Of a stretch of 64,000 nucleotides of DNA, positions 2 to 36,507 are shown piece after piece (the stretch's first letter is position 1; each line of letters starts with the position of its first letter). The position numbers and the translations under genes were made by a program. A model generated the notes under the pieces. That model worked only from the letters and a program-made list of their open reading frames with translations, ran no database searches and was not told the origin of the DNA. The DNA lies in assembly GCA_963558185.1 (NCBI GenBank), contig CAUWFE010000004.1:2395-66394 (forward strand), written 5' to 3'. This DNA is from an uncultured Clostridia bacterium. GTDB lineage: Bacteria > Bacillota > Clostridia > TANB77 > CAG-508.

Positions 2-1027
2 AAAAAAGCCGTATCAAACCAGTTAGAAGTTGTATCTCAAGCAATAGAAAACTTAGCAGACGAATTGCAACAAAATAATAAGGAAAATGAAGAAGCATTT
101 TCAATACAAAAAAAAGAAATAAAACAAATATTAGCACAAAAAAATATTTTAATAGAAAATATAGATATTGAAAAACAAAAAAATGGAAGAATGCAAATAA
201 AGTTATACACAAAAACTTGTGAAAATGTGGAAAACTCATGTCCAGATATAAAAAAAGTTGCTAAAATTTTATCTAAAATATGTGGAGAAGAATTAACATT
301 GCAAAAGCAAGAATGTGGAATACGTAATCATAATGAGAAATGTATTTTTACATTTTTATCTCAAGATAAGCACAGCTTGCAAATAGGAATTGCAAAAGCA
401 ACAAAAGAAAACTCATTAATATCAGGAGACACAAACTTACAAGTAAAACTTGATGATGGAAAATACTTAATAGCATTAAGTGATGGAATGGGCTCAGGAG
501 AAAAAGCAAGAAAAACAAGTAAAATGGCAATAAGCATGTTAGAAAAATTATTATCATCAGGCTTTGATAAAGATACTTCATTAAAATTAATAAATAGTGC
601 AATTCATAGTATATATAACAATGGAAATGAAGAAATGTATGCAACATTAGATATAGAAATATTAGACTTGTATGCAGAAAAATTAGAATTTATGAAAAAT
701 GGAGCATGTCCTACATTTATAAAACATAATAAAGATGTACAAGTACTAAAAACAATTTCATTACCAACAGGGATATTAAGTGATATAGATTTAATTGTAT
801 ATGATAGAGATATACAAAAAGGAGATATAATAGTAATATGCAGTGATGGAATATTAGAATCAACAACAGAATATACAAACAAAGAACTATGGCTTAAATT
901 TTTATTAGAAGATATAGAAACAGAAGATGTACAGAAAATAGCTGATTTAATTTTACAAGAAGCTATAGATAATAGTTATGGCGTAAAAAAAGACGATATG
1001 ACAGTAATAGTAGCAAAAATTAAATAA
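2..1027 (+). CDS. spoIIE: Stage II sporulation protein E, C-terminal PP2C phosphatase part. The 5' end lies outside the window.
   Basis: The reading frame is open from the window edge (codons from nt 2, no stop). The translation carries the SpoIIE/PP2C blocks GDTNLQVKLDDGKYLIALSDGMGSGEKA, ICSDGILE and DDMTVIVAKI. Confidence 0.8.
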   Translation, partial: KKAVSNQLEVVSQAIENLADELQQNNKENEEAFSIQKKEIKQILAQKNILIENIDIEKQKNGRMQIKLYTKTCENVENSCPDIKKVAKILSKICGEELTLQKQECGIRNHNEKCIFTFLSQDKHSLQIGIAKATKENSLISGDTNLQVKLDDGKYLIALSDGMGSGEKARKTSKMAISMLEKLLSSGFDKDTSLKLINSAIHSIYNNGNEEMYATLDIEILDLYAEKLEFMKNGACPTFIKHNKDVQVLKTISLPTGILSDIDLIVYDRDIQKGDIIVICSDGILESTTEYTNKELWLKFLLEDIETEDVQKIADLILQEAIDNSYGVKKDDMTVIVAKIK

Positions 1028-1117
1028 CAAGTATTGAAAATTTACATAAAATGCAGTACAATATAGGTATTAACTTTAAAAATCCCGTGAATTAATTAAT
1101 TTTAAAGGAGGAATATC

Positions 1118-1471
1118 ATGAAAAAATATTATCAAGCTGAATTGCGGTTTTTTGACGAAAACGACAAAGTATATTGCTATACAGAAGGAATTGTAAGAAA
1201 TGAAAATGGAATAATAGAAGGTTCTTTTGATGAAATATGTTATTACATTTTGTTACAAACCTCAGAAACAAGAATGGAAGGATTCCTAGTAGATTTTGAT
1301 AATTATGCAATAATATCAATAAATGATAAAGTTGACTTTTTTGAAATACCAGGAAAATATCTTATAGAAAAAGAAAATGTAAAGTTTTCATTTTCTATAA
1401 ATTACCAAATTAAAGATAGGAATATATTAGAAAAATTTGAAGATATTGTTAAAGAAATTAAAATGGAATGA
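1118..1471 (+). CDS. Hypothetical protein (117 aa)
   Basis: ORF with GGAGG a few nt upstream of the ATG, followed immediately by an intrinsic terminator. No family recognised. Confidence 0.55.
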   Translation: MKKYYQAELRFFDENDKVYCYTEGIVRNENGIIEGSFDEICYYILLQTSETRMEGFLVDFDNYAIISINDKVDFFEIPGKYLIEKENVKFSFSINYQIKDRNILEKFEDIVKEIKME

Positions 1472-1500
1472 GAGCTTTACTAAAGCTCTCATTCTATTTT
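1470..1500 (+). terminator. Rho-independent terminator
   Basis: gagagcttt / aaagctctc forms a 9-bp stem with a 3-nt loop, followed by the T-rich attctatttt. It overlaps the stop codon of the 1118 ORF. Confidence 0.7.
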
Positions 1501-1539
1501 AATATAATAGGAAAGTTCTCCAAACTTTCCTATTATATT
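1501..1539. repeat. Perfect 17-bp inverted repeat (AT-rich hairpin), function unknown
   Basis: aatataataggaaagtt (1501-1517) pairs perfectly with aactttcctattatatt (1523-1539) around a 5-nt loop. No flanking T-run on either strand. Confidence 0.6.
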
Positions 1540-1593
1540 AAAAGCTTTCGCTAAACATTCCACACAAATTTTATTTTATAAAATTTGGCGGGC

Positions 1594-1658
1594 GAACAAA
1601 GACGAGGCATGAAAAGTCATTAAAAATGTTGAAAATATTAATCATGCCTCTTTTGTTC
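1594..1658. other. Long imperfect hairpin in an otherwise unassigned intergenic region
   Basis: gaacaaagacgaggcatga (1594-1612) pairs with tcatgcctcttttgttc (1642-1658): 7 + 9 bp with a small bulge and a 29-nt loop. It is preceded by a locally GC-rich ggcgggcg. Confidence 0.4.
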
Positions 1659-1791
1659 TAATATTTATTGCAATTTAGTAATATGTAATTCTAAGTAAAA
1701 AGATATATATTATTTTTTTAATACTACAGTATAGCTTTTTAAATAATTCTATGATATAGTATAATAGAAAAATTGAAAGGAATGAACCAAT

Positions 1792-3309
1792 ATGAGTAGA
1801 GGAAAAAGATATAACGGAGAAAAAAAATTAAACATGAAAAAAGTATGGGCAGTAATTATTGCAATATTAGTAATTATAATGTTTTTTGCAATTATTGGTA
1901 GCCTATTAAATGAAGATGACTCAAAAATAAAAGAAAAAACCTTTGCAATTGGATATTATCCAGTATTAGAAAATGGAAAATGGGGAGTAATAGATACAAA
2001 TCAAAAAATAGTAATAGAGCCACAATACAGTGAAATGATTGTTGTGCCAGATAATACAAAACCTGTATTTGTAGTTATTTCAAATGTCGACTATCAAACA
2101 GGAAACTTCGAATCAAAAGTAGTTGATAAAAATAATAATCAATTATATACAAATTATCAAAAAGTAGAAGTAATATATAATCATGATAAAAATAATAATT
2201 TGTGGTACGAAGAAAATGTACTAAAAGTAAAAAATAATGAAAAATACGGGTTAGTAAATATAGATGGAAAAGAATTACTTGCATGTGAATATGATGATAT
2301 ATTACCAATCGAAGGAATAAAAAAATCATATATAACAATAAAAAATGGAAAAAAAGGTTTAGTAGATAATACAGGAATGATTATAGCAGATAATATTTAT
2401 CAAAATATAGAAGCTTTAACAGATAAATATGAAGACGGCTATATAGTAACAAGCGAAAATGGAAAAAAAGGAGTAATAAAATCAAACAAATCTTTAGTGT
2501 TAGAACCAAAATATGAAGAAATAGAGCATGTATATGGAAATAACTGCTATTCTGTAAAAGAAAATGGAAATTTAAAAATAGTAAATGAAAAAAAAGAAAC
2601 ATTTTTAGAAGGAAAATATAATAAAGTCAAAGAAATAAATGGAGAAAACATAATATATGAAAAAGAAGGAAAATATGGCATAATGAACTTACAAGGGGAA
2701 GAAAAAATATCACTAGAATATGATGATATAAGTTTTGCTTTTTCAGAATATTATATTGCAAAAAAAGGTGATAAATATGGAATTATATCATTAACTGAAG
2801 AAACAAAATTAGACTTTATATATTCGTATATATCATACCAAAAAGAAGCAGATTTTATACAAGCACAAATGCAAAATTTAGAAACAAGTTTACTAGATAG
2901 AAATTTTGAAGTAAAAGCTAAAGGTGTTGTTTCAGAAATAAATACAAATAAAAATTATATACGCGTAAGAGATGGCGAAAATTATAAATACTATAACTTT
3001 AAGTTAGAAGAAAAATCAAACACAGAAATACTACAAGGAAATACACTTTTCTTAAGTAAAAAAGATGGAAAATATGGATATGTAGATGAAAAAGGAAAAG
3101 TTATAGTAAATTATATATATGATGATGCTACAGAACAAAATAAATATGGATATGTAAGTGTAAAAAAAGATGGAAAATGGGGTTCATTAAATCAAAAAGG
3201 AGAAACAATATTAGAACCAACATATACATTAGAAAATAACCTAATAATAGATTTTATAGGAAAATGGCATTTATCAGAAGATATGAATGCATATTACTAT
3301 ACAAAGTAA
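1792..3309 (+). CDS. WG-repeat (KWG-type) protein with an N-terminal membrane anchor
   Basis: N-terminal TM segment (VWAVIIAILVIIMFFAIIGSLL). This is followed by more than 10 repeats of the G(K)(W/Y)G(V/L/I)(I/V)(D/N)..G..(V/I)(I/L)...Y(D/E)... type, e.g. GKWGVIDTNQKIVIEPQYSEM, EKYGLVNIDGKELLACEYDDI, GKYGYVDEKGKVIVNYIYDD. Confidence 0.75.
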   Translation: MSRGKRYNGEKKLNMKKVWAVIIAILVIIMFFAIIGSLLNEDDSKIKEKTFAIGYYPVLENGKWGVIDTNQKIVIEPQYSEMIVVPDNTKPVFVVISNVDYQTGNFESKVVDKNNNQLYTNYQKVEVIYNHDKNNNLWYEENVLKVKNNEKYGLVNIDGKELLACEYDDILPIEGIKKSYITIKNGKKGLVDNTGMIIADNIYQNIEALTDKYEDGYIVTSENGKKGVIKSNKSLVLEPKYEEIEHVYGNNCYSVKENGNLKIVNEKKETFLEGKYNKVKEINGENIIYEKEGKYGIMNLQGEEKISLEYDDISFAFSEYYIAKKGDKYGIISLTEETKLDFIYSYISYQKEADFIQAQMQNLETSLLDRNFEVKAKGVVSEINTNKNYIRVRDGENYKYYNFKLEEKSNTEILQGNTLFLSKKDGKYGYVDEKGKVIVNYIYDDATEQNKYGYVSVKKDGKWGSLNQKGETILEPTYTLENNLIIDFIGKWHLSEDMNAYYYTK

Positions 3310-3386
3310 AAAAATAGGAGAAGACCTAAAAAATAATTATAATTTTTTACAACAAGATTTGTGTCTTAGGAAGGAATGAAATAAAA

Positions 3387-4601
3387 ATGGAACGAAGGAC
3401 GAAATATCAATATACTTATTTTATACATCCATTTATCATAGAAGAAGAAAAATACGAAAATTATATTTTGAAATTAATGAAAGATAAAAGATGTGAATTA
3501 AAAATATTTACAAAAGAAAAAGATTTAAACTTATATACATATTTCATGCCAAAAATAAGAGATTACTTATTTTGGTCAATATCATATGGTCAAAAACAAA
3601 TAAAAACATTCAACGAATTAGATATAAAATTAAAGGCAAGAATGTTAGCACAAAAACAATGTATAATGTTTAATTTTAATATGGGTGAATATATACAAGG
3701 CAAAGTAGGAGAAAAGAACGGTATATTCTTTGATATACCTAAAATAGAAATAATATGTTTTAAAACAGGAGTATGTTTTTTACTAATAAAAACAATATTA
3801 AGTGATGAGAGTCAGATGAATGAAATATTAAATTTCAACTATAAATTTCGTGATATAAATTCAGATTACTCAAAATTACAAGAATATGAAAATATTAAAA
3901 TTCAAACAAATCGCTTTCAATATGTTAAAGACTTACAACAAATTGTAAAAGAAATAACAGGTGAGAATGACTTAACTAAAAAAATAAATGTTGAAAGTGA
4001 AAGATTTTTAACATACACATATGTATGTTTAGATCAAGAATTTTGGAATGAAAATAAAAGTTTTGAAGAAGTTGAAAATGATTTTGTAAAACTAAAAAAT
4101 GTATTGCCAGCAAAAACACAAATGAATATAGATATAAATTCAAGTCAATCAATTACATTATCAACTTTGCAATATGTAAAAATAGGAATAACAAAGCAGG
4201 CAATAGCTTTATTAACATCAAGTATAAATACAGCAAATTATACTAAAATACCACATATATTTGAAAACGAATATTTATATACATATATATTTGCATTATA
4301 TCAAAAAATATTTTTAGAAAAAATAAAATATGAATTTAAAGAAAAAAGTTTTTCAAAGGTGGAAAAAAGCTTTGTTGAATTTACAGAAAGTGTATGGAAT
4401 GAAGATATTACATCAAATGTAGATGGCTCAATGCTATATAAAGAAATGCATAAAAATTATGATATTGAAAAAGATTATCAATCAGCAAAAAGTAGATATG
4501 AAATTGCCAATAAAAAGAATAACAGTAAAAGAATAAGAGATATATCATATATATTATTAGTACTATTTTTAATTATAATAGCAAAAATATTATTTTTTTA
4601 A
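3387..4601 (+). CDS. Hypothetical protein (404 aa) with a C-terminal transmembrane tail
   Basis: Intact ORF. The only hydrophobic segment is at the extreme C-terminus (ISYILLVLFLIIIAKILFF). No family recognised. Confidence 0.55.
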   Translation: MERRTKYQYTYFIHPFIIEEEKYENYILKLMKDKRCELKIFTKEKDLNLYTYFMPKIRDYLFWSISYGQKQIKTFNELDIKLKARMLAQKQCIMFNFNMGEYIQGKVGEKNGIFFDIPKIEIICFKTGVCFLLIKTILSDESQMNEILNFNYKFRDINSDYSKLQEYENIKIQTNRFQYVKDLQQIVKEITGENDLTKKINVESERFLTYTYVCLDQEFWNENKSFEEVENDFVKLKNVLPAKTQMNIDINSSQSITLSTLQYVKIGITKQAIALLTSSINTANYTKIPHIFENEYLYTYIFALYQKIFLEKIKYEFKEKSFSKVEKSFVEFTESVWNEDITSNVDGSMLYKEMHKNYDIEKDYQSAKSRYEIANKKNNSKRIRDISYILLVLFLIIIAKILFF

Positions 4602-4614
4602 GAAAGGGATATCT

Positions 4615-4990
4615 ATGAAAATTAAGTGTGGAACAGATATTATAGAAGTACCAAGAATACAAGAATCAATAGAAAATATTGGTGATGCATTTTTAAATAG
4701 AGTTTTTACAGATAAAGAAATTAAGTATTGTAAATCAAAGAAAAACATGCAATATCAGCACTTTGCAGCAAGGTTTGCTGCAAAAGAAGCCGTTTTTAAA
4801 GCAATATCAGATTATTTTGAGAATAAATATGATATATCTTGGAAAAATATAGAAATATTAAATGATAAAAAACGGAAAACCTTATGTACAATTTGTAGGA
4901 ATAACTTTAAATGATATACAAGATATAGATATTAGCTTGTCACATTTAAAAGAGTATGCTATAGCAACATGTAGTATACTTACAAAATAG
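4615..4990 (+). pseudogene. acpS: Holo-[acyl-carrier-protein] synthase interrupted by a +1 frameshift (or an assembly indel)
   Basis: The N-terminal part (GTDIIEVPRI, FAARFAAKEAVFKA) is typical AcpS. After the A6 run at 4867-4872 the frame gives RKTLCTICRNNFK*. The +1 frame instead gives NGKPYVQFVGITLNDIQDIDISLSHLKEYAIATCSILTK*, the expected AcpS C-terminus. Confidence 0.8.
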
Positions 4991-4999
4991 GAGGCAAAA

Positions 5000-5786
5000 T
5001 TGGAATTTTTTGATACACATAGTCATTATAATGATGAAAAATTTGATGTAAATAGAGAAGAAATAATAAATCAAACTTATAATGAAAATATAACGAAATT
5101 TACTTGTTGTGGATATAATGAAGAATCATCAATAAAAGCAGTAGAATTGGCAAAAAAATATCCATATATATATGCTATATGTGGAATTTCACCACAAGAA
5201 GCACCGCGGAGAAAAATGTGAAATAAGTGAAAGAATAAATAAAATAGAGCAACTTTTAAAACAAGATAAACAGCACAATATAGTAGCAGTAGGAGAAATA
5301 GGGTTAGATTATTATTGGGTAAAAGATAATAAAGAAATACAAAAAGAATTATTTATAAAGCAAATAGAATTAGCAAATACATATAAATTACCTATTGTTA
5401 TACATACAAGAGAAGCAGTTATGGATACTATACAAATAATAAAAGAAAATAAGCCACAAAAACAAGGTATAATTCATTGCTGTGCATTTAATAGAGAACT
5501 AGTAAAAGAAGCATTAAAACTAGGATTTTATATCTCATTTGCAGGTCCAGTAACTTTTAAAAATGCAAAAAATGCAGAAGAAATTGTAAACATGGTACCA
5601 TTAGATAAATTATTAATAGAAACAGACAGCCCATATTTAGCACCAGAACCTAAAAGAGGAACTCGCAATAATTCTATAAATGTAAAATATATAGCAGAAA
5701 AAATAGCAATTTTTAGAAAAATGCAATTACAGGACATAGCCAAAATAACATATGGAAATGCAAAAAATATATTTCAAATTAAATAA
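5000..5786 (+). pseudogene. tatD: TatD-family metal-dependent hydrolase split by a single-base frameshift (or an assembly indel)
   Basis: TTG start after AGGAGG. The N-terminal ORF has FDTHSHYND. The second ORF continues with VAVGEIGLDYYW, PIVIHTREA, IIHCCAF and ETDSPYLAP. The two frames join around ccgcggagaaaaatg (5205-5217), where removing one base restores a single ORF. Confidence 0.8.
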
Positions 5787-5918
5787 TAAAAGTATAAATA
5801 TAATATATAATAAACAAAAGTAAAAAGGAAAAGAAAAAATGAAAAAAATAAACGGGCAAAGCCTTGGGAGAGTATATATATCGACAAATGTAGTAAAATA
5901 AAAATAAATAAAAAAGAG

Positions 5919-5971
5919 GATAGTAAAACAAAATCTGTAATAGATACAGGTTAGTTTTGCTATCTTTTTTT
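5919..5971 (+). terminator. Rho-independent terminator, probably ending the acpS-tatD transcript
   Basis: gatagtaaaac (5919-5929) pairs with gttttgctatc (5954-5964) using one G-U pair. It is followed by T7 (5965-5971). Confidence 0.75.
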
Positions 5972-6010
5972 CATGGATTAGCTTTTAATAAAATAATTAT
6001 TGAAATAAAA

Positions 6011-6067
6011 ATGTAATAAATATGTAACAAAAATGTAATTGAATTAAATTAAAGGTTAATATATAAT
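6011..6067 (+). promoter_or_regulatory. Promoter cassette copy A: three ATGTAAY heptads at 11-bp phasing plus TTGAAT-17-TATAAT
   Basis: ATGTAAT 6011-6017, ATGTAAC 6022-6028, ATGTAAT 6033-6039. The -35 TTGAAT is at 6039-6044, followed by a 17-nt spacer and the -10 TATAAT at 6062-6067. Identical at 61 of 66 positions to 35022-35087. Confidence 0.6.
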
Positions 6068-6102
6068 ATAAATAAGGAAAAAAGAATGCAAGGAGGAAGA
6101 AA

Positions 6103-9100
6103 ATGGAGGAAATACCAATATTAAAAAAAGATATAAAGAATAATATAATAGAAGAAAAATCTATAAACAAAAATAAAAAACATAGGGAAAAGGAAAAAGG
6201 GATAACACTAATAGCATTAGTAGTAACAATAGTAATATTAGTAATATTATCAGCAACAGCAATAACCATGATAATAGGGGAAAATGGACTATTTGACCAA
6301 GCAAAATGGGGAAGCTTTAGTAGTAGATTTGCAGACGTAGAAGAAATAAGGAACATATATGAAGCAAGTAAAGAAATGGAAGAAATACAAAGTCAAACAA
6401 AGCTAAAAATAGAAGAAAAGAAAGGGCTAACAGGAGAAGTAAGCAAAGAAGAAAAAGAAGAAATAGAAAAAAATAATAAAACCCTAAAAATAAAAATGGA
6501 AGAACTAAGTGGAAAACCACTAGAAGAACTAAAAATATATTGGATAGACAACAAAAAAATAGGAACACAAGTAAAAGAAAAATATGTAATAGACGTAGAA
6601 ACAAACCAAATATATCAATATAAAGGGGAAAAAATCTACGGAAAGATATGGCATACATTAGATGACGGAATAGGAGAAAATGACGGAACAATAGAAGACG
6701 AAGATAAAGAAAACTTTGAAGGGTGGATAAAACTAACATTAAACTATCCAGAAAACTCAACAGACTGGAAATGGAGACTAGTGGCAGTAGGAGAAGTAAG
6801 AAATGATCCAGAATTAATATGGAAAGAGTACACAGGACCAATATGGGTAAGAATCCAAGATGTAGAAAACGTATGGATGAGATATAAAATGAACGGAGAA
6901 GACGTAATAGTAGCACCAGAAGGAAGAGTAGTAGTAGATATAGAAGCAGATAGCTATTATCCAGACCTAAGAGAAAAAGTAAAAGTAAAAATAAACTATG
7001 ATAAAGGAGCAGAAATAAAAGAATATAAAGTAGGAAATGGAGAGTGGAAAGAATACCAAGGAGAATTCTATGTAACAGAAAATACACTAATAGAAGCAAG
7101 AGCAAAGAAAACAGAAAGAATATTAAATGAATTTGGAGAAGTAGAATCAGAAACAGAAAGCTGGGGAAGAGACAATTTATATATAGGAAATATAGGAATA
7201 GAAGAAACAGAATTACCAGCACCAAGAATAATAAAAAAAGAAGGAGGAACAGGAGAAGTAGCCAAAGTAGCAATAGAATATCCACAGGAAGCTCAAGGAG
7301 GAAAACAAATATATAAATTAGACTATGGAGAAGAACAAGAATATAATGGAGAAGTAGGAATAGAAAAAAATGGAACATATGTAATAGCATATTACTATAA
7401 CCAAGAAGGAAAAAGAAGTAAATCAACAAGTATAAAAATAATAGAAAATGGAGAAAGCCAAGGAGGAGAATATATACCAAATAAACCAGGGATAAACGGA
7501 GAAAATGGAGAAAGTAACCCAACAAAGCCAAGCTATAAAATACCAGGCCCCGTAATAAGTGAAAATGGAGGAAATGTAAGTATAAGCTTGCCAGCACAAA
7601 CAACAAATAAAGAAGCAAAAGAGAACAAAATATATTATAAAATATTAGGACAAGGAGGTTACAAAAGGTATACGGCATCATTTAAAGTAGAAATGACATG
7701 TACAATAGCCTCATACTATATAACAGAGAAAGGTGAAATATCAGAAACAACATATAAAGATGTATATATAGCAGAACCAGGAATGCCAAAAGTAACAATC
7801 CAATTAAAACCAAGTGAATATGAAGTAAAATATAATGCAGGAAAAGTAGAAGTAACAATAAAAGCTCAAGACAGTGAAAAAATAGAATATAGCTTTAACA
7901 AAGTAGAATGGAAAGAATACACAAAACCAATAGAAGTAACAAAAAACTGTAGAATATATGCAAGAGGAACAAATAGTAATGGAGAAACGATAGAATATAA
8001 AGACATAACAAACCTAGGAGCACAGCCAGAAATACCAGACACATTATCAGTAAACATAAGCACAAAAGATATTCAAGGGCAAACAGGAAAAGTAGAAAAA
8101 GTAAAAGTAAGTATAGGATATGATGGAAGAGCACAAAGGAAATACTATAAAATAGGACAAACAGGAGAAATAAAAGAATATACAGGAGCCTTTGAAGTAG
8201 ATAAAAACTGTACAATATATGCATATGCAATATCAGAAAAAGGATATGGAGAAGCCCAAAAAGGAATAGATAGTATAGAAAAAGGAATAGATAGTATAGA
8301 AAAAGGAATAATGGACCCAATAATAACAGTAAAACCAAATGAAAACTATCAAGCATCAAAAGTAAAAGTAGAAATACAATATGATAAAAATGTGACACAA
8401 AAGAAATATAGAATAAATAAAGGACAATATAAAGACTATACAGAAAGCTTTGAGGTAGAAGAGAATTGTGAAATAGAAGCATATAGTACAAATGCAAAAG
8501 GAAAAATAGGAAAAAGCACATATAGAATAACAAATATAATAAAAGAAGATGTAATAACAGTAATAGACCAAGGAGATTACTATATAATAAGACTAAGCTA
8601 TCCACCAACAGCAATAAATAAAGAATATAAATGGCAAGAAAAAGGAACATGGAAACCATATCATAATACAGGAATACTATTAGCTAAAGAAAAAATAAAA
8701 CAGCAAGTAGAAGGAGCAGATGTAGTAAAAGTAAAAGATGAAGGAGGAAAAGAAATAACATTTGATAAAGAAGACATCTACTTTATTACAAAACCGGTAA
8801 ATGAATTAATAGAACAAATATATATGAGATGGGATAATAGAACACCAACAATGCCAGAAATAATATTAAGTACAGAAGAACCATGCTTAGAACTAGATGC
8901 AACAATAAAGTATAGTAACACAATAATAGAAAAGAAATATAGAATAGTATATCCAAATGGAGTAATAACAAGTTGGAAAGACTATAAAGATGGAGAAAAA
9001 ATCCATGTAACACAAAAAGGAACAACAATATATGCAAAAGGGCAAGATGAAACAGGAATGTGGACAAAAACAGCATCAAGACAGATTAATAATATAGATG

Positions 9101-10839
9101 AAGAGCCACCAGTAATAAAAGTAGAAGGAGACTTTGATACAGAAACAACGCAATTAGGCCTAAAAATAGGAGTAACAGATGATGTAGGAATAGAAAAGAT
9201 AAAATGGTCAGAAGGAAATCAATTAGAAAGTTACTTTAAAGAAAATGGAGAACTATTATATGAAAAAGAAGGAGAAACACAAAAGAAAGTAGAAAAAGAA
9301 ATAAAAGTAAAAGCAAATGGATATTATACAATATATGCAGAAGATATAGTAGGAAATAGTGGAATATTTACACTACAAGTAGGAAATATAGACTTAATAC
9401 CACCAAAAGTAAGTATAGATGTAAAACCAGAAGAACTAACAACACAAGTAAAAATAAATATAGACTATGAAGATAGTAAAATAAAAGAATATAAAATAGG
9501 AAATAGTGGATGGAATAACTATACAGGAGAAATAACATTAAGTTCATATACAGTAATAACAAATAAATGGATGAATGCAGATGGAACAGTAACAATATAT
9601 GCAAAAGGAATAGACGTAGCAGGAAATGAAACAAACACAGAAAAAACAATAAATAATTTAGATACACAATTACCACAAATGCCAGTAATAAATTCAAATT
9701 ATGGATATCCAATATTAACAGAGTATGGGGTAAAGAAAGATGGAAAAACAACAATAACGTTTGATACAAGTAAAAATGTAACCAATTACTATAAAATAGA
9801 TGAAGGACAATGGATAGAATATACAGGAGAATTTGAAATAGATAAGGAATGTACAATATATGTAAAGAGTGTAAAAAATGATAGTGGATTGGGAGTAAGT
9901 ACAAGTAGAACAATAACATCACCAACAGATGCATTAGGAGAAGCAGCATATGATGGAGATGAAAATACAGGAGATGAATATACTAAAGAAGGAAGCAAGT
10001 ATGTATATGTAGATGAAACAATGCAAGGAAGAAATATTAGAATCAAAATATATGAAAATTATAGTGCAGATGTTGAATTTTATTCTATGACAGGACAAAA
10101 GATTAGTGAATTTCATATTAATGATAATGATAACTATGCAACAGAAAATATAGTAGCAATACCGGAAGGAACAAAAAAAATTGGAATTAAAAGTTTGGCA
10201 GCAGGTGAATCTATATTTAAAACAATAGTATATGAAATACAAGTTTCAAACGAACCGAGATTTACATCGACAAAAGGATACCCATTATTACATGCAGAAG
10301 TAGACAAGCAAATAAAAGAACCATATGAAATGGTAAGTATAAATTATTTTCCAACAAGTGTACAAAGATTGTATAAAATAGGAGATGGAAAATGGATAGA
10401 TTACAAAGATGAAGCCGTATGGGTAAATCAAGGAGAAACAATATATGCAAAAGGAATAGATAAATTTGGAAATGAAACAAGAATAATAAGTTCATATACA
10501 GCAAATGTTTCAAATGCATTAGCGAAAGAAGCATTTGATGGAGATGAAAATACAGGAGATGAATATACTAAAGAAGGAAGCAAGTATGTATATGTAGATG
10601 AAACAATGCAAGGAAGAAATATTAGAATCAAAATATATGAAAATTATAGTGCAGATGTTGAATTTTATTCTATGACAGGACAAAAGATTAGTGAATTTCA
10701 TATTAATGATAATGATAACTATGCAACAGAAAATATAGTAGCAATACCGGAAGGAACAAAAAAAATTGGAATTAAAAGTTTGGCAGCAGGTGAATCTATA
10801 TTTAAAACAATAGTGTATGAAATACAACATTCAAATTAA
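6103..10839 (+). CDS. Giant (1578 aa) repeat-rich surface protein with a prepilin-like (class III signal-peptide-like) N-terminus and two C-terminal lectin-like modules
   Basis: AAGGAGG RBS. The N-terminus ...EKEKGITLIALVVTIVILVILSATAITMIIGENG resembles a pilin leader plus hydrophobic helix. At least 10 repeats of roughly 85-95 aa carry the pattern (K/R)YYKIG.G.W.EYTG.F.V..N.TIYA.., which resembles chitobiase/hexosaminidase C-terminal-type beta-sandwich repeats. The C-terminal module YDGDENTGDEY...IRIKIYENY... is duplicated. Confidence 0.85.
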   Translation: MEEIPILKKDIKNNIIEEKSINKNKKHREKEKGITLIALVVTIVILVILSATAITMIIGENGLFDQAKWGSFSSRFADVEEIRNIYEASKEMEEIQSQTKLKIEEKKGLTGEVSKEEKEEIEKNNKTLKIKMEELSGKPLEELKIYWIDNKKIGTQVKEKYVIDVETNQIYQYKGEKIYGKIWHTLDDGIGENDGTIEDEDKENFEGWIKLTLNYPENSTDWKWRLVAVGEVRNDPELIWKEYTGPIWVRIQDVENVWMRYKMNGEDVIVAPEGRVVVDIEADSYYPDLREKVKVKINYDKGAEIKEYKVGNGEWKEYQGEFYVTENTLIEARAKKTERILNEFGEVESETESWGRDNLYIGNIGIEETELPAPRIIKKEGGTGEVAKVAIEYPQEAQGGKQIYKLDYGEEQEYNGEVGIEKNGTYVIAYYYNQEGKRSKSTSIKIIENGESQGGEYIPNKPGINGENGESNPTKPSYKIPGPVISENGGNVSISLPAQTTNKEAKENKIYYKILGQGGYKRYTASFKVEMTCTIASYYITEKGEISETTYKDVYIAEPGMPKVTIQLKPSEYEVKYNAGKVEVTIKAQDSEKIEYSFNKVEWKEYTKPIEVTKNCRIYARGTNSNGETIEYKDITNLGAQPEIPDTLSVNISTKDIQGQTGKVEKVKVSIGYDGRAQRKYYKIGQTGEIKEYTGAFEVDKNCTIYAYAISEKGYGEAQKGIDSIEKGIDSIEKGIMDPIITVKPNENYQASKVKVEIQYDKNVTQKKYRINKGQYKDYTESFEVEENCEIEAYSTNAKGKIGKSTYRITNIIKEDVITVIDQGDYYIIRLSYPPTAINKEYKWQEKGTWKPYHNTGILLAKEKIKQQVEGADVVKVKDEGGKEITFDKEDIYFITKPVNELIEQIYMRWDNRTPTMPEIILSTEEPCLELDATIKYSNTIIEKKYRIVYPNGVITSWKDYKDGEKIHVTQKGTTIYAKGQDETGMWTKTASRQINNIDEEPPVIKVEGDFDTETTQLGLKIGVTDDVGIEKIKWSEGNQLESYFKENGELLYEKEGETQKKVEKEIKVKANGYYTIYAEDIVGNSGIFTLQVGNIDLIPPKVSIDVKPEELTTQVKINIDYEDSKIKEYKIGNSGWNNYTGEITLSSYTVITNKWMNADGTVTIYAKGIDVAGNETNTEKTINNLDTQLPQMPVINSNYGYPILTEYGVKKDGKTTITFDTSKNVTNYYKIDEGQWIEYTGEFEIDKECTIYVKSVKNDSGLGVSTSRTITSPTDALGEAAYDGDENTGDEYTKEGSKYVYVDETMQGRNIRIKIYENYSADVEFYSMTGQKISEFHINDNDNYATENIVAIPEGTKKIGIKSLAAGESIFKTIVYEIQVSNEPRFTSTKGYPLLHAEVDKQIKEPYEMVSINYFPTSVQRLYKIGDGKWIDYKDEAVWVNQGETIYAKGIDKFGNETRIISSYTANVSNALAKEAFDGDENTGDEYTKEGSKYVYVDETMQGRNIRIKIYENYSADVEFYSMTGQKISEFHINDNDNYATENIVAIPEGTKKIGIKSLAAGESIFKTIVYEIQHSN
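8260..8310 (+). repeat. In-frame 21-bp tandem repeat, about 2.4 copies
   Basis: aaaggaatagatagtatagaa occurs at 8260-8280 and 8281-8301, then a partial aaaggaata at 8302-8310. It encodes KGIDSIE KGIDSIE KGI. Confidence 0.85.
9952..10826 (+). repeat. 585-bp-period tandem duplication inside the giant gene, with a 290-bp almost identical core
   Basis: 9952-10241 and 10537-10826 are identical by eye except one position (10230 A versus 10815 G). The first halves of the two 195-aa units are strongly diverged. Confidence 0.85.
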
Positions 10840-10904
10840 CACAAAATATAAAAAATAAAAGAAAGGAATAGGTGCCTAAACTAAAACACCTCAAGGTATA
10901 AAAA

Positions 10905-11327
10905 ATGAAAAAACAAGAAAAAAGAATAATATTACTACTAGTAATAATAACAATAATAGTAATAGGAATATTTATATTCACAAGAAGTGGAAATAAGCAA
11001 GAAGAAAATAAAACAGAAACAATCCAAGAAGGAAATACAACATATGTACAAGTAACAGATAAAGAAGTAGATGAAATAGAAGTTACAAATATAGAAATAA
11101 CAGAAGAAAATGGAGATGCAGTAGTAACAGCAAATGTAACAAATAATACAAAGCAAGAAAAAGAAGAATTTACAGTAAAAATAAAACTAAAAAATGAAAA
11201 AGGAAAAATAATTCAAGAACTAGGAGCATTAATAGGAAAAACACAACCAGGAGAAACAAGACAAATAAGAGCAATAGTAGGAGGAGTAAATATAAATGAA
11301 ATAAAAGATATAGAAATAATAAAATAA
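10905..11327 (+). CDS. Small N-terminally anchored protein (140 aa), paralog 1
   Basis: N-terminal TM (IILLLVIITIIVIGIFIF), a polar linker, then a roughly 90-aa ectodomain of alternating beta-strand character (VTANVTNNTKQEKEEFTVKIKLKNEKGKII...). Same architecture as the next ORF. Confidence 0.65.
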   Translation: MKKQEKRIILLLVIITIIVIGIFIFTRSGNKQEENKTETIQEGNTTYVQVTDKEVDEIEVTNIEITEENGDAVVTANVTNNTKQEKEEFTVKIKLKNEKGKIIQELGALIGKTQPGETRQIRAIVGGVNINEIKDIEIIK

Positions 11328-11376
11328 AGAAGGAGGAGAAGAGCATCTTAAAAAAATAAGATGCTCCAAATAAAAA

Positions 11377-11754
11377 ATGGATAAAAAGAAGTTAATATTA
11401 ATAATAATAGCAATATTGTTAGTAATAGGAGTAATTGCAATAATAGCAAATATGGGAAATAAAAAGGAAAGTCAAGAAGAAGGAAAAGTAGTAATAAACG
11501 AAATAGAATTTAGCAATATAAGCAAAGAATATAGTGGAGGAATAACAACAGTAAGAGCAACAGTAAAAAATAATACAGAAGAAACAAAAAACATAAATGT
11601 AAAAGTAATATTAAAAGATAAAGAAGGAAAAGTGCTAATAGAAACAAAGCAAAAATTAGAAAATATAGAATCCGGAAGAAAAAAACTATTAGCAGCAGGA
11701 ATAATGGGAGATTACAGTAATGCAGATAAAATAGAATTAAAAGAAATCAAATAA
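11377..11754 (+). CDS. Small N-terminally anchored protein (125 aa), paralog 2
   Basis: N-terminal TM (LILIIIAILLVIGVIAIIA) and an ectodomain TVRATVKNNTEETKNINVKVILKDKEGKVL... that parallels the 10905 product. No obvious SD next to the ATG. Confidence 0.6.
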   Translation: MDKKKLILIIIAILLVIGVIAIIANMGNKKESQEEGKVVINEIEFSNISKEYSGGITTVRATVKNNTEETKNINVKVILKDKEGKVLIETKQKLENIESGRKKLLAAGIMGDYSNADKIELKEIK

Positions 11755-11757
11755 TAT

Positions 11758-11793
11758 AAAACTCTTTATGATAAATATCATAAAGAGTTTTTG
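11758..11793 (+). terminator. Rho-independent terminator at the end of locus A
   Basis: actctttatgat (11761-11772) pairs with atcataaagagt (11777-11788) around a 4-nt loop, followed by ttttt. Confidence 0.75.
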
Positions 11794-11837
11794 CAATAGT
11801 AAAAAAGTTAATGATAGTGTGAATTAATGTGAATAAA

Positions 11838-12755
11838 TTATCTTAAATTCTCTAATGCTTCTATTCTATCTTCAATAGAAGGGTGAGTTGAAAATAAGTT
11901 TTTACTTCTTTTTATTTTTTTACCATTAGAATCAATGGCATCTTTCTTAAATGGACATACAATAAACATATTAGCAGTAGAACGGTTAGCAGTTCTTAGC
12001 TCATTTGAATCACCATCTAATTTTTTTAAAGCAGAAATTAAACCATCTGGATTACGTGTAAATTGAACTGAAGTAGCATCTGCTAAAAATTCTCTTCTCC
12101 TAGATAATGCAAGTTGCATAAGTTGAGAAAAAATAGGGGAAAGAATTAGAAAAACAAAACCAACTAAAAATATAATTACATTTGCATTTCCACTATCATT
12201 ATCATCATCTCTTATACCTCCCCAGAATAAAGCTCTAGTAACAATATCAGCTAACATCACAACTAATCCCACCATTACAGAAACTACAGCAGAAAGGCGT
12301 ATATCATAATTTTTTATATGTGCAAGTTCATGCCCAATAACACCTTCTAATTCATAATAATCTAATTTTTCAAGTAAACCAGTAGTAACACATATAACGG
12401 AATTTTGAGGATTTCTACCAGTAGCAAAAGCATTAGGTTGAGCATCATCTACAACATACAATTTAGGTGTATGCTCTAAACCAGAAGCAATCACTAAAGA
12501 ATTTAGAATATTACATAACTTTTGATCTTCCTCTTTAGTAGCAGGTCTTGCACGATTAAGAGAAAGTACTATCTTATCACTATAGTAGTAAGAACCCCAA
12601 GCAGATAATATAGAAAAAGTTAAAGCAATAACTACAGAAACTGCACCCAAATCTAACATCTGGCAGATAAAGTAAATTAATAAAGTAATAACTACAATAA
12701 AAGCAGAAACAATAAAACCAGATTTCCATTTATTCTTTTTTATATCATCATACAT
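11838..12755 (-). CDS. htpX: M48-family zinc metalloprotease HtpX
   Basis: HELAHIKNYD (HExxH) lies between hydrophobic segments. The start was moved to the ATG at 12755, which has GGAGG 6 nt upstream. The longer ORF start at 12779 lacks an SD. Confidence 0.8.
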   Translation of the reverse strand: MYDDIKKNKWKSGFIVSAFIVVITLLIYFICQMLDLGAVSVVIALTFSILSAWGSYYYSDKIVLSLNRARPATKEEDQKLCNILNSLVIASGLEHTPKLYVVDDAQPNAFATGRNPQNSVICVTTGLLEKLDYYELEGVIGHELAHIKNYDIRLSAVVSVMVGLVVMLADIVTRALFWGGIRDDDNDSGNANVIIFLVGFVFLILSPIFSQLMQLALSRRREFLADATSVQFTRNPDGLISALKKLDGDSNELRTANRSTANMFIVCPFKKDAIDSNGKKIKRSKNLFSTHPSIEDRIEALENLR

Positions 12756-12811
12756 AATAAACCTCCATAAATAAAGCACAAAGGAAGAAGACCTTTGTGC
12801 TAAAAATAATA

Positions 12812-13363
12812 TTAACTAAAATCTACTTTTACATTTTTTCTAGCTTCTTCATTATCTACATTAAATAAACTTTCTGCTTTAAAATTAAACATAGAAGCAA
12901 TAATATTTGATGGGAACATTTCTAATTTTGTATTATACATTGTTACACTATCATTATAAAATTGTCTTGCATAAGAAATTTTATTTTCAGTATTACGTAA
13001 TTCTTCTTGTAATTCAGAAAAGTTTTGATTTGCTTGTAATTCTGGATAATTTTCAGAAACAGACATAATTGTTTTTAAAGTACTAGATAAAGCATTTTCT
13101 AAACCAGCTTTTTCTTCTACAGTTGTAGCATTAGCCCATGCAGTACGTAATTGGGCTATATCAGTTAAAACTTTTTCTTCATGTTTCATGTAACCTTTTA
13201 CAGTATCAACAAGATTAGGAATTAAATCAAATCTTCTTTGTAATTGTACATCTATTTGACTCCATGCATTTTTCACTTTTAATCTAGCTTGAACTAAATT
13301 ATTGTACATAACAATAAGAGCAATAACAAGTACAACAACGATACCTAAAATAATCCAACCCAT
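12812..13363 (-). CDS. lemA: LemA family membrane protein
   Basis: N-terminal TM, then NLVQARLKVKNAWSQIDVQLQRRFDLIPNLV...ENYPELQANQNF, which is typical of LemA. The start at 13363 has GGAGG 9 nt upstream. It forms a likely operon with htpX. Confidence 0.8.
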   Translation of the reverse strand: MGWIILGIVVVLVIALIVMYNNLVQARLKVKNAWSQIDVQLQRRFDLIPNLVDTVKGYMKHEEKVLTDIAQLRTAWANATTVEEKAGLENALSSTLKTIMSVSENYPELQANQNFSELQEELRNTENKISYARQFYNDSVTMYNTKLEMFPSNIIASMFNFKAESLFNVDNEEARKNVKVDFS

Positions 13364-13499
13364 AAAAATAATCCTCCTTTTAAAAAACATTTAAGTAATA
13401 AAATATTTATATCATATTTTTTGTGTATATACAATAGTTATATTGTGAATTTTTATTGAAAAGTTAATAATTAATGGTTTCTGTAAATTAATATAAATA

Positions 13500-35114: not shown

Positions 35115-36507
35115 ATGAAAGAAAATAATCAAGGAATAACTTTAATTGCATTAGTAGTTACAATAATAATATTAGTAATATTGGTGTCTGTAAGCATAAC
35201 AATAATTTTAGGGAATAATGGAATAATAAAACAAGCACAACAAGGGGCAGAGTCTATGAAAGAATCAGAGGCGAAGGTAGAATTAGAAATTGCATTGCTA
35301 GAATTGGAATCAGAAAAAATATTAAATGAAAAATATAATCAAAATGAATATATAGATCAATATTTAATACAAAAGAAAATGATCGTGAGAAAAAATATAG
35401 TAATAGTGGATGGAAATTTGAAATAGATAGAAGTGTGCCAAAAATAATAAATTCACTAGGAAAAGAAGATAAAATTGTAGATACAGAAATATATACATTA
35501 GAAGACTTAATAAAATTTGCTCAAGAAGTAAACAATGGTAAAACTTTTGAAGATAAAACAATTAAATTAATGAATGATATAGATTTACAAGGAAATGAAA
35601 ATAATCAATGGGTACCAATAGGAAATGATTCTAACTATTTTGCAGGAATATTTAAAGGAAATAATCATATAATAAATAATCTATATATAAAAGATTCTAA
35701 CAAGGAAAAATTAGCTCTATTTGGAAACTGTAATAATGCACAAGTAGAAAATTTACAAGTAAATGGATATATAAGTGGTGGTAAAAATATAGCAGGAATA
35801 ATAGCTATAGCAGAAGGGACAAATATTATAAATTGTATTAACGGTGTAGAAGTTATAGGTACTGGAAATAATATAGCAGGAATTGTGGCATATGCCAGTA
35901 ATTCATATATTGAAAAATGTATAAATAATGCAAATGTTACAGGTAATGCATCATGTAATGGGGGAATAGCAGCTGTTACAGAAAGTACTGATATTGTAGA
36001 ATGTTGTAATTTAAATGTAATTACAGGAAATGCAGCAATAGGAGGTATAGTTGGACAGGCACATGCTAAACAAGCAAATGCTAAAATAGAATTTTGCTAT
36101 AATATTGGAAGTGTAATTTCAATAAAAGGAAATTCCAACAATAGGGCATATGTTGGAGGAATTCTTGGAATGGCAACTGAAGGTGAAACAGCTATAAATT
36201 ATAGTTATAATATAGGTGATGTACAAAAAAAGTAGCAGAAGCTAAATGCTCTGGTGGAATAATAGGAGGAGTTTCAAAAGAATATGAAACAAAATTAACT
36301 GTTAGGAATGTTTTTACAACTGATGAATCATATAAACCATATTTGAGTTCATCAGAACCTGTATATAGTGGAGTAAATATGGATTTAACGAAAGAACAAT
36401 TAATAAATTGGAATCAAGAAGATATAGATAAATACTTAACAAATAAATTTATAGAAACTACAGATGTAAATTCAGGTTTTCCAATATTAGCATGGCAAAA
36501 TAAATAA
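35115..36507 (+). pseudogene. Pilin-leader GLUG-repeat surface protein broken by two -1 frameshifts at A-tracts (or assembly indels)
   Basis: The N-terminus MKENNQGITLIALVVTIIILVILVSVSITIILGNNG matches the leader of the 6103 gene. The frame continues in the -1 frame after the A4 run at 35371-35374 (...ENDREKKYSNSGWKFEIDRSVPKII...). The middle ORF has GLUG-type repeats (NIAGIIAIAEG, NIAGIVAYASN, NGGIAAVTES, IGGIVGQ, VGGILGMA). After A7 at 36225-36231 the next frame continues KVAEAKCSGGIIGGVSKE...GFPILAWQNK*. Confidence 0.75.

Follow-up and report, generated by a model that had tools for sequence, protein, structure and literature searches.

A 1578-residue surface protein with a Glu5-less, prepilin-like N-terminus and its leader family in uncultured gut Clostridia

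Could a surface protein of 1578 residues belong to a type IV pilus system when its prepilin-like leader lacks Glu5 and no pilus-assembly gene is found around it? This question is raised by a 64,000-nucleotide stretch of DNA from an uncultured Clostridia bacterium (GTDB lineage Bacillota; Clostridia; TANB77; CAG-508; assembly GCA_963558185.1, contig CAUWFE010000004.1, positions 2,395 to 66,394 of the forward strand), referred to here as the window and numbered from its first letter. The protein and its gene are called the giant below. Our analysis favours, at a probability of about 0.65, the view that the giant is a modular type IV pilin or adhesin and belongs to a pilus system without Glu5, which is specific to a clade of uncultured low-GC gut Clostridia and whose genes lie elsewhere in the genome. 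More interesting than the giant itself is the huge family of Ala5 pilin signals, with a pilus operon of its own, to which its leader belongs.

A prepilin-like N-terminus with Ala at +5

The giant starts at an ATG preceded by AGGAGG with a 6-nt spacer. Because no alternative in-frame ATG, GTG or TTG was found before Gly33, a leader of 33 residues is the sole canonical reading. This leader reads MEEIPILKKDIKNNIIEEKSINKNKKHREKEKG33, with K/E/R-rich residues preceding Gly33, and is followed by I34-T-L-I-A38 and about 25 hydrophobic residues after the (I)TLI box, before the sequence continues as G59-E-N-G62-L-F-D-Q-A-K-W. An earlier note on this DNA, made from the letters alone, had described a class III-like layout (charged leader, Gly, TLI box and hydrophobic stretch) with Ala instead of Glu at +5. 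Both can be read directly in the open reading frame (ORF) at 6103-10839, the residue at +5 being Ala38 (codon gca, nucleotides 6214-6216), so that the Glu5 expected of a prepilin is absent. Residues 26-334 were modelled with AlphaFold2 (AF2) from an alignment of 17 sequences (mean predicted local distance difference test score (pLDDT), 79). The model placed one helix at residues 32-58 (model residues 7-33; alpha1-N) and another at residues 63-97 (model residues 38-72; alpha1-C), with an immunoglobulin (Ig)-like beta domain from about residue 208 (model residue 183).

The 45 homologues of the giant carried three kinds of N-terminus. Most had the Ala5/Val5 variant, in which Gly is followed by I(T/S)L(I/L)(A/V)L. 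A canonical leader with Glu5, KKG followed by FTL(I/V)EL, was present in P0005, P0006, P0015, P0018, P0026, P0031 and P0034, and the Pfam family N_methyl (PF07963) was recorded for three of these. In P0030, P0032, P0035 and P0037, a plain Lys-rich signal anchor led into poly-Leu. All three kinds shared the passenger from the W(D/E)GWIxLTLYYP domain onward, and the alignment showed that the module between alpha1 and this domain differed between the Ala5-type and Glu5-type giants. A profile-profile comparison with hhalign matched the Ala5 leaders to the Glu5 leaders with a probability of 93.6% (E=2e-7), aligning Gly-1 on Gly-1, with a 3-residue insertion at the G-x-N-G motif in the Ala5 variant. 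One Glu5-type giant (P0006) was encoded 7 kb from PilC and from a PilD with both A24 domains, with more large N_methyl proteins nearby; another (P0031) lay among housekeeping genes, like the giant of the window. These comparisons indicate that the N-terminus of the giant derives from a pilin and is a class III (prepilin-type) signal.

The leader family and a pilus operon in related genomes

The earlier note had suggested counting and clustering the proteins with G-ITLIA leaders. An exhaustive scan of 1.84 billion proteins with a 50-column leader profile yielded, as representatives at 50% identity, 31,838 matches at E<=1e-3 and 19,427 clusters at E<=1e-10. Against a database clustered at 90% identity, at least 6333 of the 8000 scored candidates matched. 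The leader profile was far more productive than a 103-aa paralogue used as a homology query, which returned only 30 candidates. The peptide GITLIALV[VI] occurred in at least 598 places in GTDB species representatives, and its carriers, among the matches listed, were nearly all metagenome-assembled genomes (MAGs) recorded as uncultured Clostridia or as Clostridium sp., from the guts of humans, rabbits, chickens and deer.

Conservation was studied in 113 distinct leader ORFs from 1.28 Mb of loci, collected with a pattern that demanded the Gly and left +10 onward free. Upstream of Gly-1, nothing was conserved except a basic composition, a collapse that is independent of the search pattern. From +1 to +21, the sequence was near-invariant, ITLIALV(V/I)TI(I/V)(V/I)L(L/I)ILA(G)V(S/T)I, and beyond the membrane span G26, N28, G29, I30, A34, A37, T41, A44, E48 and L52 were conserved, the last six (from A34) being spaced with helical periodicity. 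The giant retains the alpha1-N positions that are invariant in this set. The residue at +5 was Ala in 119 of 121 leader ORFs and Ser in two (Ala in 111/113 of the distinct set), and leaders were 4-70 residues long (median 11), values that are perhaps slight overestimates, as the ORF caller picks the first start codon. The two deviations from the consensus singled out earlier, Ala5 and the long leader, are therefore present but not peculiar to the giant: both are norms of the clade, and 33 residues, although long, fall within the range. The sharp edge at Gly-1, together with about 50 constrained residues whatever the passenger, fits a processed class III signal with a shared alpha1 assembly helix, and judging from this pattern a freely drifting signal anchor would be a poor match for the family.

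The 121 leader ORFs had a median length of 432 aa; 17 were pilin-sized (100-200 aa) and the giant was the largest. PF07963 matched 7 of 88 family members at E<0.001. The passengers of these members, all of at least 190 aa, included FGE-sulfatase-like domains (12), BspA-type leucine-rich repeats (LRRs; 8), DUF285 (6), GLUG (5) and GH5 cellulases (2), besides other LRRs, Laminin_G_3, fn3 and F5/8 type C domains. The flanks of the seed genes contained one additional leader gene per 33 kb, and two leader genes are present in the 64 kb of the window; extrapolated to a genome of ~2 Mb, this would amount to several tens. At least one family member is named 'type II secretion system protein' at NCBI, indicating that automated annotation partly recognises the family.

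When 84 loci (L001-L084) were searched by tblastn with Escherichia coli HofB, GspE, HofC and GspO, genes for PilB, PilT and PilC emerged in six species-level MAGs (L011, L020, L037, L040, L043 and L044), following a leader gene at a distance of 2-6 kb on its downstream side. The same operon was present at a metagenome locus (L095, with a second copy from another sample, L096; ENA contigs), flanked by rsmB and a ROK kinase. Its composition (Table 1) was defined by ORF maps, Pfam and cross-searches, and at L095/L096 by precomputed Pfam labels. The tandem small pilins of this operon, encoded between the pilM/N-like genes and the gene of the PilD-like protein, bear exactly the leader of the giant, whose alpha1 helix is nearly identical to theirs, and their size, position and duplication suggest that they are the major pilins. 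The model of a small operon pilin was poor outside alpha1 (pLDDT 54; head below 50). One of the two minor pilins has Glu5 (MKLRSEKG, then FTGIE…) and is absent from the L011 operon; this arrangement reverses that of canonical systems, in which only the capping subunit is without Glu5. Since the presumed major pilins share Ala5, this residue alone marks neither a capping or tip subunit nor a degenerate signal, and the proposal that the giant is a tip subunit because it lacks Glu5 was rejected. The MAGs with the operon also hold scattered leader genes (CAUWEX at L020 and L050; CALXEW at L040, L070 and L075).

The PilD-like protein of the operon keeps a Zn-finger N-terminal domain (Zn-finger/methylase, A24_N_bact) and, in GIDKE, the first catalytic Asp. 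Conserved Asp residues stand at 126 and at 176/180, the second lying ~50 residues downstream in D(T/S)ITLK. Four further MAGs (L015, L025, L045 and L082) encode a standalone A24 peptidase, the gene of which is flanked by that of a HAD phosphatase on one side and by pepP/efp on the other; its ~248-aa product lacks the N-domain but has the two canonical Asp motifs. The methylase and peptidase functions may be split between these two proteins; alternatively, the PilD-like protein may be a divergent peptidase that co-evolved with the Ala5 signal. Derivation of the giant's N-terminus from a pilin is upheld by the hhalign register and by the operon pilins with the same leader. Of the two roles offered earlier for it, a pilin-derived membrane anchor or a substrate of a distant pseudopilus system, the operons of the related MAGs fit the second.

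Passenger, neighbouring genes and the window

The passenger of the giant matched NCBIfam NF047446 (OmpL47-type beta domain) over eight stretches (E=3e-21), and its C-terminal modules gave weak Pfam matches to GBD_IRG7_N and DUF5000; homologues carry F5/8 type C (PF00754) or bear its name. The beta-sandwich repeats and two lectin-like, galactose-binding-like modules read earlier from the sequence were thus recovered. The accompanying claim that the pilin head had been replaced held only in part: the passenger is large, but simple replacement probably does not describe it, as a confidently modelled alpha/beta module (residues ~103-185) follows alpha1, although this module matched no known pilin fold. 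A search of the whole giant by sequence against PDB chains gave no match. The cores of the lectin-like modules form a 300-nt direct repeat (9926-10225 and 10511-10810, +; 98% identical, 585 nt spacing), which points to a very recent internal duplication of the module and could possibly serve as a recombination substrate that changes the length of the giant. A modular pilin is defined as a pilin moiety joined to modules unrelated to pili, the pilin part serving for polymerisation into the filament (PMC8179133). In its architecture, alpha1 combined with OmpL47-type Ig-like repeats and lectin-like modules follows this plan; the fit depends on counting the Ala5 leader as a pilin moiety.

Two small transmembrane (TM)-anchored proteins, paralogous to each other, are encoded downstream of the giant, and no Pfam family was found for either. 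The second showed identities of 55%, 48% and 40% to the neighbours of the giants at L093, L091 and L092, respectively. Homologues of the two adjoin an Ala5-type giant (L093: 141 and 150 aa) as well as Glu5-type giants (L092: lipoproteins of 131 and 133 aa; L091: 134 aa). Because they stand beside giants of both leader types, the giant and the two small genes form a conserved three-gene unit.

Table 1. Features of the giant and its surroundings in the window, and genes of the Ala5 pilus operon in related genomes
Feature	Position	Strand	Evidence or remarks
Gene of the giant modular pilin-like surface protein, 1578 aa	6103..10839	+	ORF list; homologues P0001-P0046
Basic leader peptide, residues 1-33, ending at Gly33 (-1, putative prepilin-peptidase site)	6103..6201	+	Sequence; family conservation
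Hydrophobic alpha1-N, residues 34-58 (ITLIALVVTIVILVILSATAITMII), Ala38 at +5 replacing Glu	6202..6276	+	Sequence, AF2, hhalign
G-E-N-G helix break (59-62), then amphipathic alpha1-C (63-97)	6277..6393	+	Family conservation, AF2
Small alpha/beta module after alpha1, residues ~103-185	6409..6657	+	AF2 pLDDT about 88-94; conserved only in Ala5-type giants
Ig-like/OmpL47-type beta-sandwich array, from the conserved WxGWIxLTLxYP domain	6724..9912	+	NF047446, alignment, AF2
Two lectin-like (galactose-binding-domain-like) modules	9926..10810	+	Repeat search; weak Pfam matches; homologues
Small protein (140 aa) with a TM anchor, conserved next to the giant	10905..11327	+	Homologues beside giants in L093, L092, L091
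Small TM-anchored protein, 125 aa, paralogue of the preceding product, conserved neighbour	11377..11754	+	Identity to L093/L091/L092 neighbours
Second leader gene (MKENNQG, then ITLIALVVTIIILVIL), frameshift-split into ORFs of 103 and 266 aa	35115..36235	+	Motif scan, ORFs
Operon: pilM/N-like gene, about 540 aa			PilN domain
Operon: two small membrane proteins			
Operon: 2-3 tandem pilins, 132-168 aa			Start M(x)NNKG, then ITLIALVITIIVLLILAGVSIAMLTG(Q/E)NGIL
Operon: PilD-like protein, 270 aa	L020:10899-11711; L040:10957-11805; L011:10496-11311; L095:8919-9734		A24_N_bact, E=2e-29
Operon: two minor pilins, one KGFTGIE (Glu5), one KGVTLIS	Glu5 pilin: L020:11724-12146		Glu5 pilin in 5/6 operons (equivalents in L037, L040, L043, L044)
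Operon: PilB (544 aa), PilT (365 aa), PilC (448 aa)			T2SSE, T2SSE, T2SSF

The window (27% GC) is a stretch of spore-forming Clostridia chromosome with ordinary content, including SpoIIE, TatD, rpoB/rpoC, L9, DnaB, TilS, FtsH, PBP, MinDE, RodA, ComEC and ClpB, and the gene of the giant is not within a minor-pilin operon. Searches of the window by tblastn gave no match either with E. coli HofB, GspE, HofC, GspF and GspO or with the clade-specific PilMN, PilD-like, PilB, PilT, PilC and A24 queries. Pfam scans of the other ORFs in the window identified no pilus-assembly gene, comEC being the sole DNA-uptake gene. The earlier remark that no prepilin peptidase, ATPase or platform gene occurs within the 64 kb was therefore accurate.

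The nearest GTDB loci were L051 (~80-82% amino acid identity in rpoB/rpoC) and L064 (by synteny), and the sampled loci of both MAGs were without the operon. L064 (MGYG-HGUT-04539) is syntenic with positions 65-13390 of the window, sharing a WG-repeat protein, a 404-aa protein, TatD, the slot of the giant, M48 and LemA. The slot itself (L064:9992-12358) holds a 788-aa leader protein that aligns with the giant only over residues ~30-68, that is, the leader. Because an unrelated passenger occupies the same slot, passengers have apparently been swapped like cassettes behind a constant alpha1.

The 11-mer GITLIALVVTI recurs in the window at 35133, within the second leader gene, whose first ORF (35115-35426) begins MKENNQG followed by ITLIALVVTIIILVILVSVSITIILGNNGIIKQAQQG. 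This gene is interrupted by a frameshift at ~35408-35421 (GTGGATGGAAATTT), where homologues continue as ...IVDGW(E/K)FEI(N/D)RSVP.... Loss of one GGAT from the GGATGGAT tandem would explain the frameshift; a pseudogene, switching by strand slippage and an error of assembly are all conceivable. A 62-aa copy of a leader gene at L002-L004 is similarly truncated.

Frameshifts were also observed elsewhere in the window. The comEC gene (54736-57109, +; DUF4131, Competence and metallo-beta-lactamase domains) is shifted within the metallo-beta-lactamase domain (…SHFDADHV / GGLLTILENL…); as the gene calls of L088, a contig from another sample, are split alike, this is probably not a sequencing error of a single assembly. 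The TatD DNase frame (5000-5786, +) is carried by two overlapping ORFs (5000-5221 and 5172-5786), an apparent frameshift that likewise splits this frame in the gene calls of the contig itself (L087). In addition, a surface protein of 2994 aa (36730-45714, +) has 11 SpaA (prealbumin-like) domains, an ordinary N-terminal signal/TM segment and a C-terminus of the form …VKTG + TM + KKY. Given this ordinary signal and C-terminal TM tail, the genome also uses an anchoring route that does not involve pilins.

Interpretation and relation to known systems

If the giant is a modular pilin, its route to the surface might be as follows. The basic 33-residue leader would remain in the cytoplasm while the alpha1-N helix inserts the protein in the membrane, and an A24-family prepilin peptidase would cut after Gly33, as suggested by the conservation boundary and by the A24 genes of related genomes. 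The mature protein would then begin at Ile34 and be handled by a PilB/PilT/PilC/PilMN machine encoded elsewhere in the genome. Because of its bulk, the giant would most plausibly be loaded first and placed at the pilus tip; alternatively, it might never leave the membrane and serve as a surface protein with a pilin-type anchor. In either position, the Ig-like domains and the two lectin-like modules, together ~1500 residues, would be held off the cell, where they could bind glycans or host or dietary surfaces.

Modular pilins provide the closest parallel. An InterPro survey recognised more than 1200 such proteins in 264 architectures, the largest of 860 aa and all through IPR012902 (Raynaud et al. 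2021, PMC8179133); the giant, with 1578 aa, is nearly twice as long. The GLUG/M26 and Laminin_G-type passengers included in that survey occur in the Ala5 family as well. Similar to PilB (vWA) and PilC (lectin) of Streptococcus sanguinis and CofB of enterotoxigenic E. coli (ETEC), for which a tip location has been proposed (PMC8179133, PMC9934059), the giant combines a class III signal and alpha1 with grafted adhesive modules. However, Glu5 is present in the S. sanguinis proteins, and their genes are part of the pilus operon, whereas the giant has Ala5 and is encoded far from any machinery. In a further difference from the modular pilins of S. sanguinis and ETEC, each genome probably has dozens of genes like that of the giant. 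Absence of Glu5 is known from the capping K subunit and from S. sanguinis PilA, where it has been read as a sign of tip position (PMC9934059, PMC10191384); the large GspK, with its extra domain, stands at the tip. For want of Glu5, PilA went undetected by every available tool, PilFind among them (PMC9934059). The giant resembles GspK- and PilK-type subunits and PilA in this absence. Capping systems of the K type, in which only the first-assembled subunit is Glu5-less, differ in that the presumed major pilins of the Ala5 system lack Glu5 too. A K-type capping minor pilin (GspK/PilK/PilX-like) was therefore not accepted as an identity for the giant; moreover, such subunits are encoded with the H, I and J minor pilins, whereas the gene of the giant lies outside a minor-pilin operon.

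Other comparisons are less close to its architecture. With the type IV pilins of Clostridia (KGFTLIELLVV...; PMC3244431, PMC6916266) the leader family shares an in-register Gly-1, (F/I)-T-L-(I/V) at +1 to +4 and a hydrophobic helix, but it departs from them in Ala5, an invariant Thr9, the G-x-N-G break at +26 to +29 and scores below the thresholds of curated hidden Markov models (HMMs). Archaeal class III proteins and the Sulfolobus bindosome (PMC3047682, PMC4371748) likewise have no conserved Glu5 and include many non-pilin surface proteins, which there depend on type IV pilus-like assembly. Unlike the archaeal systems, the one described here has bacterial PilB/PilT/PilC/PilMN, a bacterial-type A24 N-terminal domain and the motif G followed by ITLIALVxTI.... 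The Tad-like 'pilin' cluster of TANB77 (PMC11680825) also comprises pilus genes and pilin-like proteins in uncultured low-GC gut Clostridia; it was rejected as the same system, having CpaB, TadZ, CpaF/TadA and TadBC, whereas the present operon is of the PilMN/PilB/PilT/PilC type. In the literature outside subscription journals, no paper with the motif ITLIALV or its variants was found, nor any on Glu5-less bacterial major pilins, for which the S. sanguinis work was the only related record.

Several observations weigh against the giant being a pilin or adhesin of such a pilus. The HMM comparison proposed in the earlier note did align PF07963 with the predicted site (residues 30-53) but at 16.0-17.5 bits, under the gathering score of 21.2; TIGR02532 was not among the NCBIfam matches, and pseudopilin-type families matched only weakly. 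When the N-terminal model was compared with the PDB by Foldseek, no structure reached E<=0.001, and the weak matches were confined to fn3/Ig folds. The assembly machinery, found in operons of related MAGs, was not encoded in the window, nor did a peptidase, ATPase or platform gene turn up in the sampled flanks of the 81.6-kb metagenome contig ena:ERZ27227060:k119_20660 (~20 kb around the gene and ~21 kb at the downstream end of the window). The PilD-like protein of the operon showed no recognisable GxGD motif and no Peptidase_A24 match. With about one gene per 33 kb, the leader proteins are too many for all of them to be pilus-tip subunits. Moreover, two roles are ascribed to Glu5 (PMC10191384), neutralisation of the adjacent subunit's N-terminus and the driving of docking into the filament, and an Ala5 filament would have to assemble without this residue. 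Finally, the homologues with plain anchors show that a pilin N-terminus is not required for the passenger to function. The earlier note had held that homologues with ordinary signals would reveal the pilin likeness as coincidental; such homologues exist, but they do not refute a pilin origin because others bear canonical Glu5 prepilin leaders.

The same plain-anchor homologues, the scattering of leader genes among housekeeping genes and the dozens of paralogues per genome (median 432 aa), some with enzyme passengers such as GH5, would also suit a protein that is merely tethered by a pilin-derived alpha1, cleaved or not, with its Ig-like stalk spanning the wall and without ever entering a filament; a passenger of 1545 residues would indeed be very bulky for a filament subunit. 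A tether, however, explains neither why ~50 residues, those of the extramembrane alpha1-C among them, stay near-invariant in front of unrelated passengers nor why the helix is almost identical with that of the operon pilins, and a plain membrane anchor would presumably need no conservation out to +52. We consider this alternative rather unlikely. The gene density and the variety of passengers (LRR, DUF285, GLUG, FGE-sulfatase-like, GH5 and lectin), together with the unrelated passenger behind the same leader in the syntenic slot of L064, might instead reflect a general route of surface display or secretion, in which Glu5-less machinery, bindosome-like or type II pseudopilus-like, assembles many class III cargoes into a surface structure; the sugar-binding proteins of Sulfolobus with class III signals (PMC3047682) offer a precedent. 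Against this, the operon encodes a retraction ATPase of the PilT type as well as small pilins in tandem, both typical of true type IVa pili, and we regard this explanation, with its hypothetical surface structure, as improbable. A chance resemblance between a pilin leader and the hydrophobic signal anchor of an AT-rich genome, for which the 27% GC content with its abundant I/L/K/N codons and the subthreshold scores of curated HMMs could be cited, is contradicted by the profile-profile homology to Glu5 leaders, the linkage to a pilus operon and the sharp conservation edge at Gly-1, and hardly deserves consideration. A modular pilin or adhesin of a Glu5-less pilus thus remains the reading that we prefer for the giant.

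A bolder proposal, which we put forward tentatively and regard as possible rather than probable, concerns the clade as a whole. These Clostridia might combine Glu5-less major pilins with a GxGD-less PilD-like protein and use alpha1 as a general display signal, with the pilus machine presenting ~50 cargo proteins per genome or extracting them from the membrane. Cargo would then comprise adhesins, LRR proteins, glycoside hydrolases and the 1578-aa giant. Such a system would be a bacterial counterpart of the bindosome, assembled without the salt bridge between Glu5 and the N-terminus.

Glu5 is treated as a hallmark of bacterial type IV pilins, and detection tools depend on it. Tens of thousands of protein clusters from abundant uncultured gut Clostridia use Ala at +5 instead, apparently including the major pilins of operons that contain PilT. 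If Ala5 filaments truly assemble, the accepted role of Glu5 would need to be qualified. In that case, current annotation would also be overlooking a major group of gut-microbiome surface proteins, comprising adhesins, lectins and carbohydrate-active enzymes that likely attach to host or dietary glycans.

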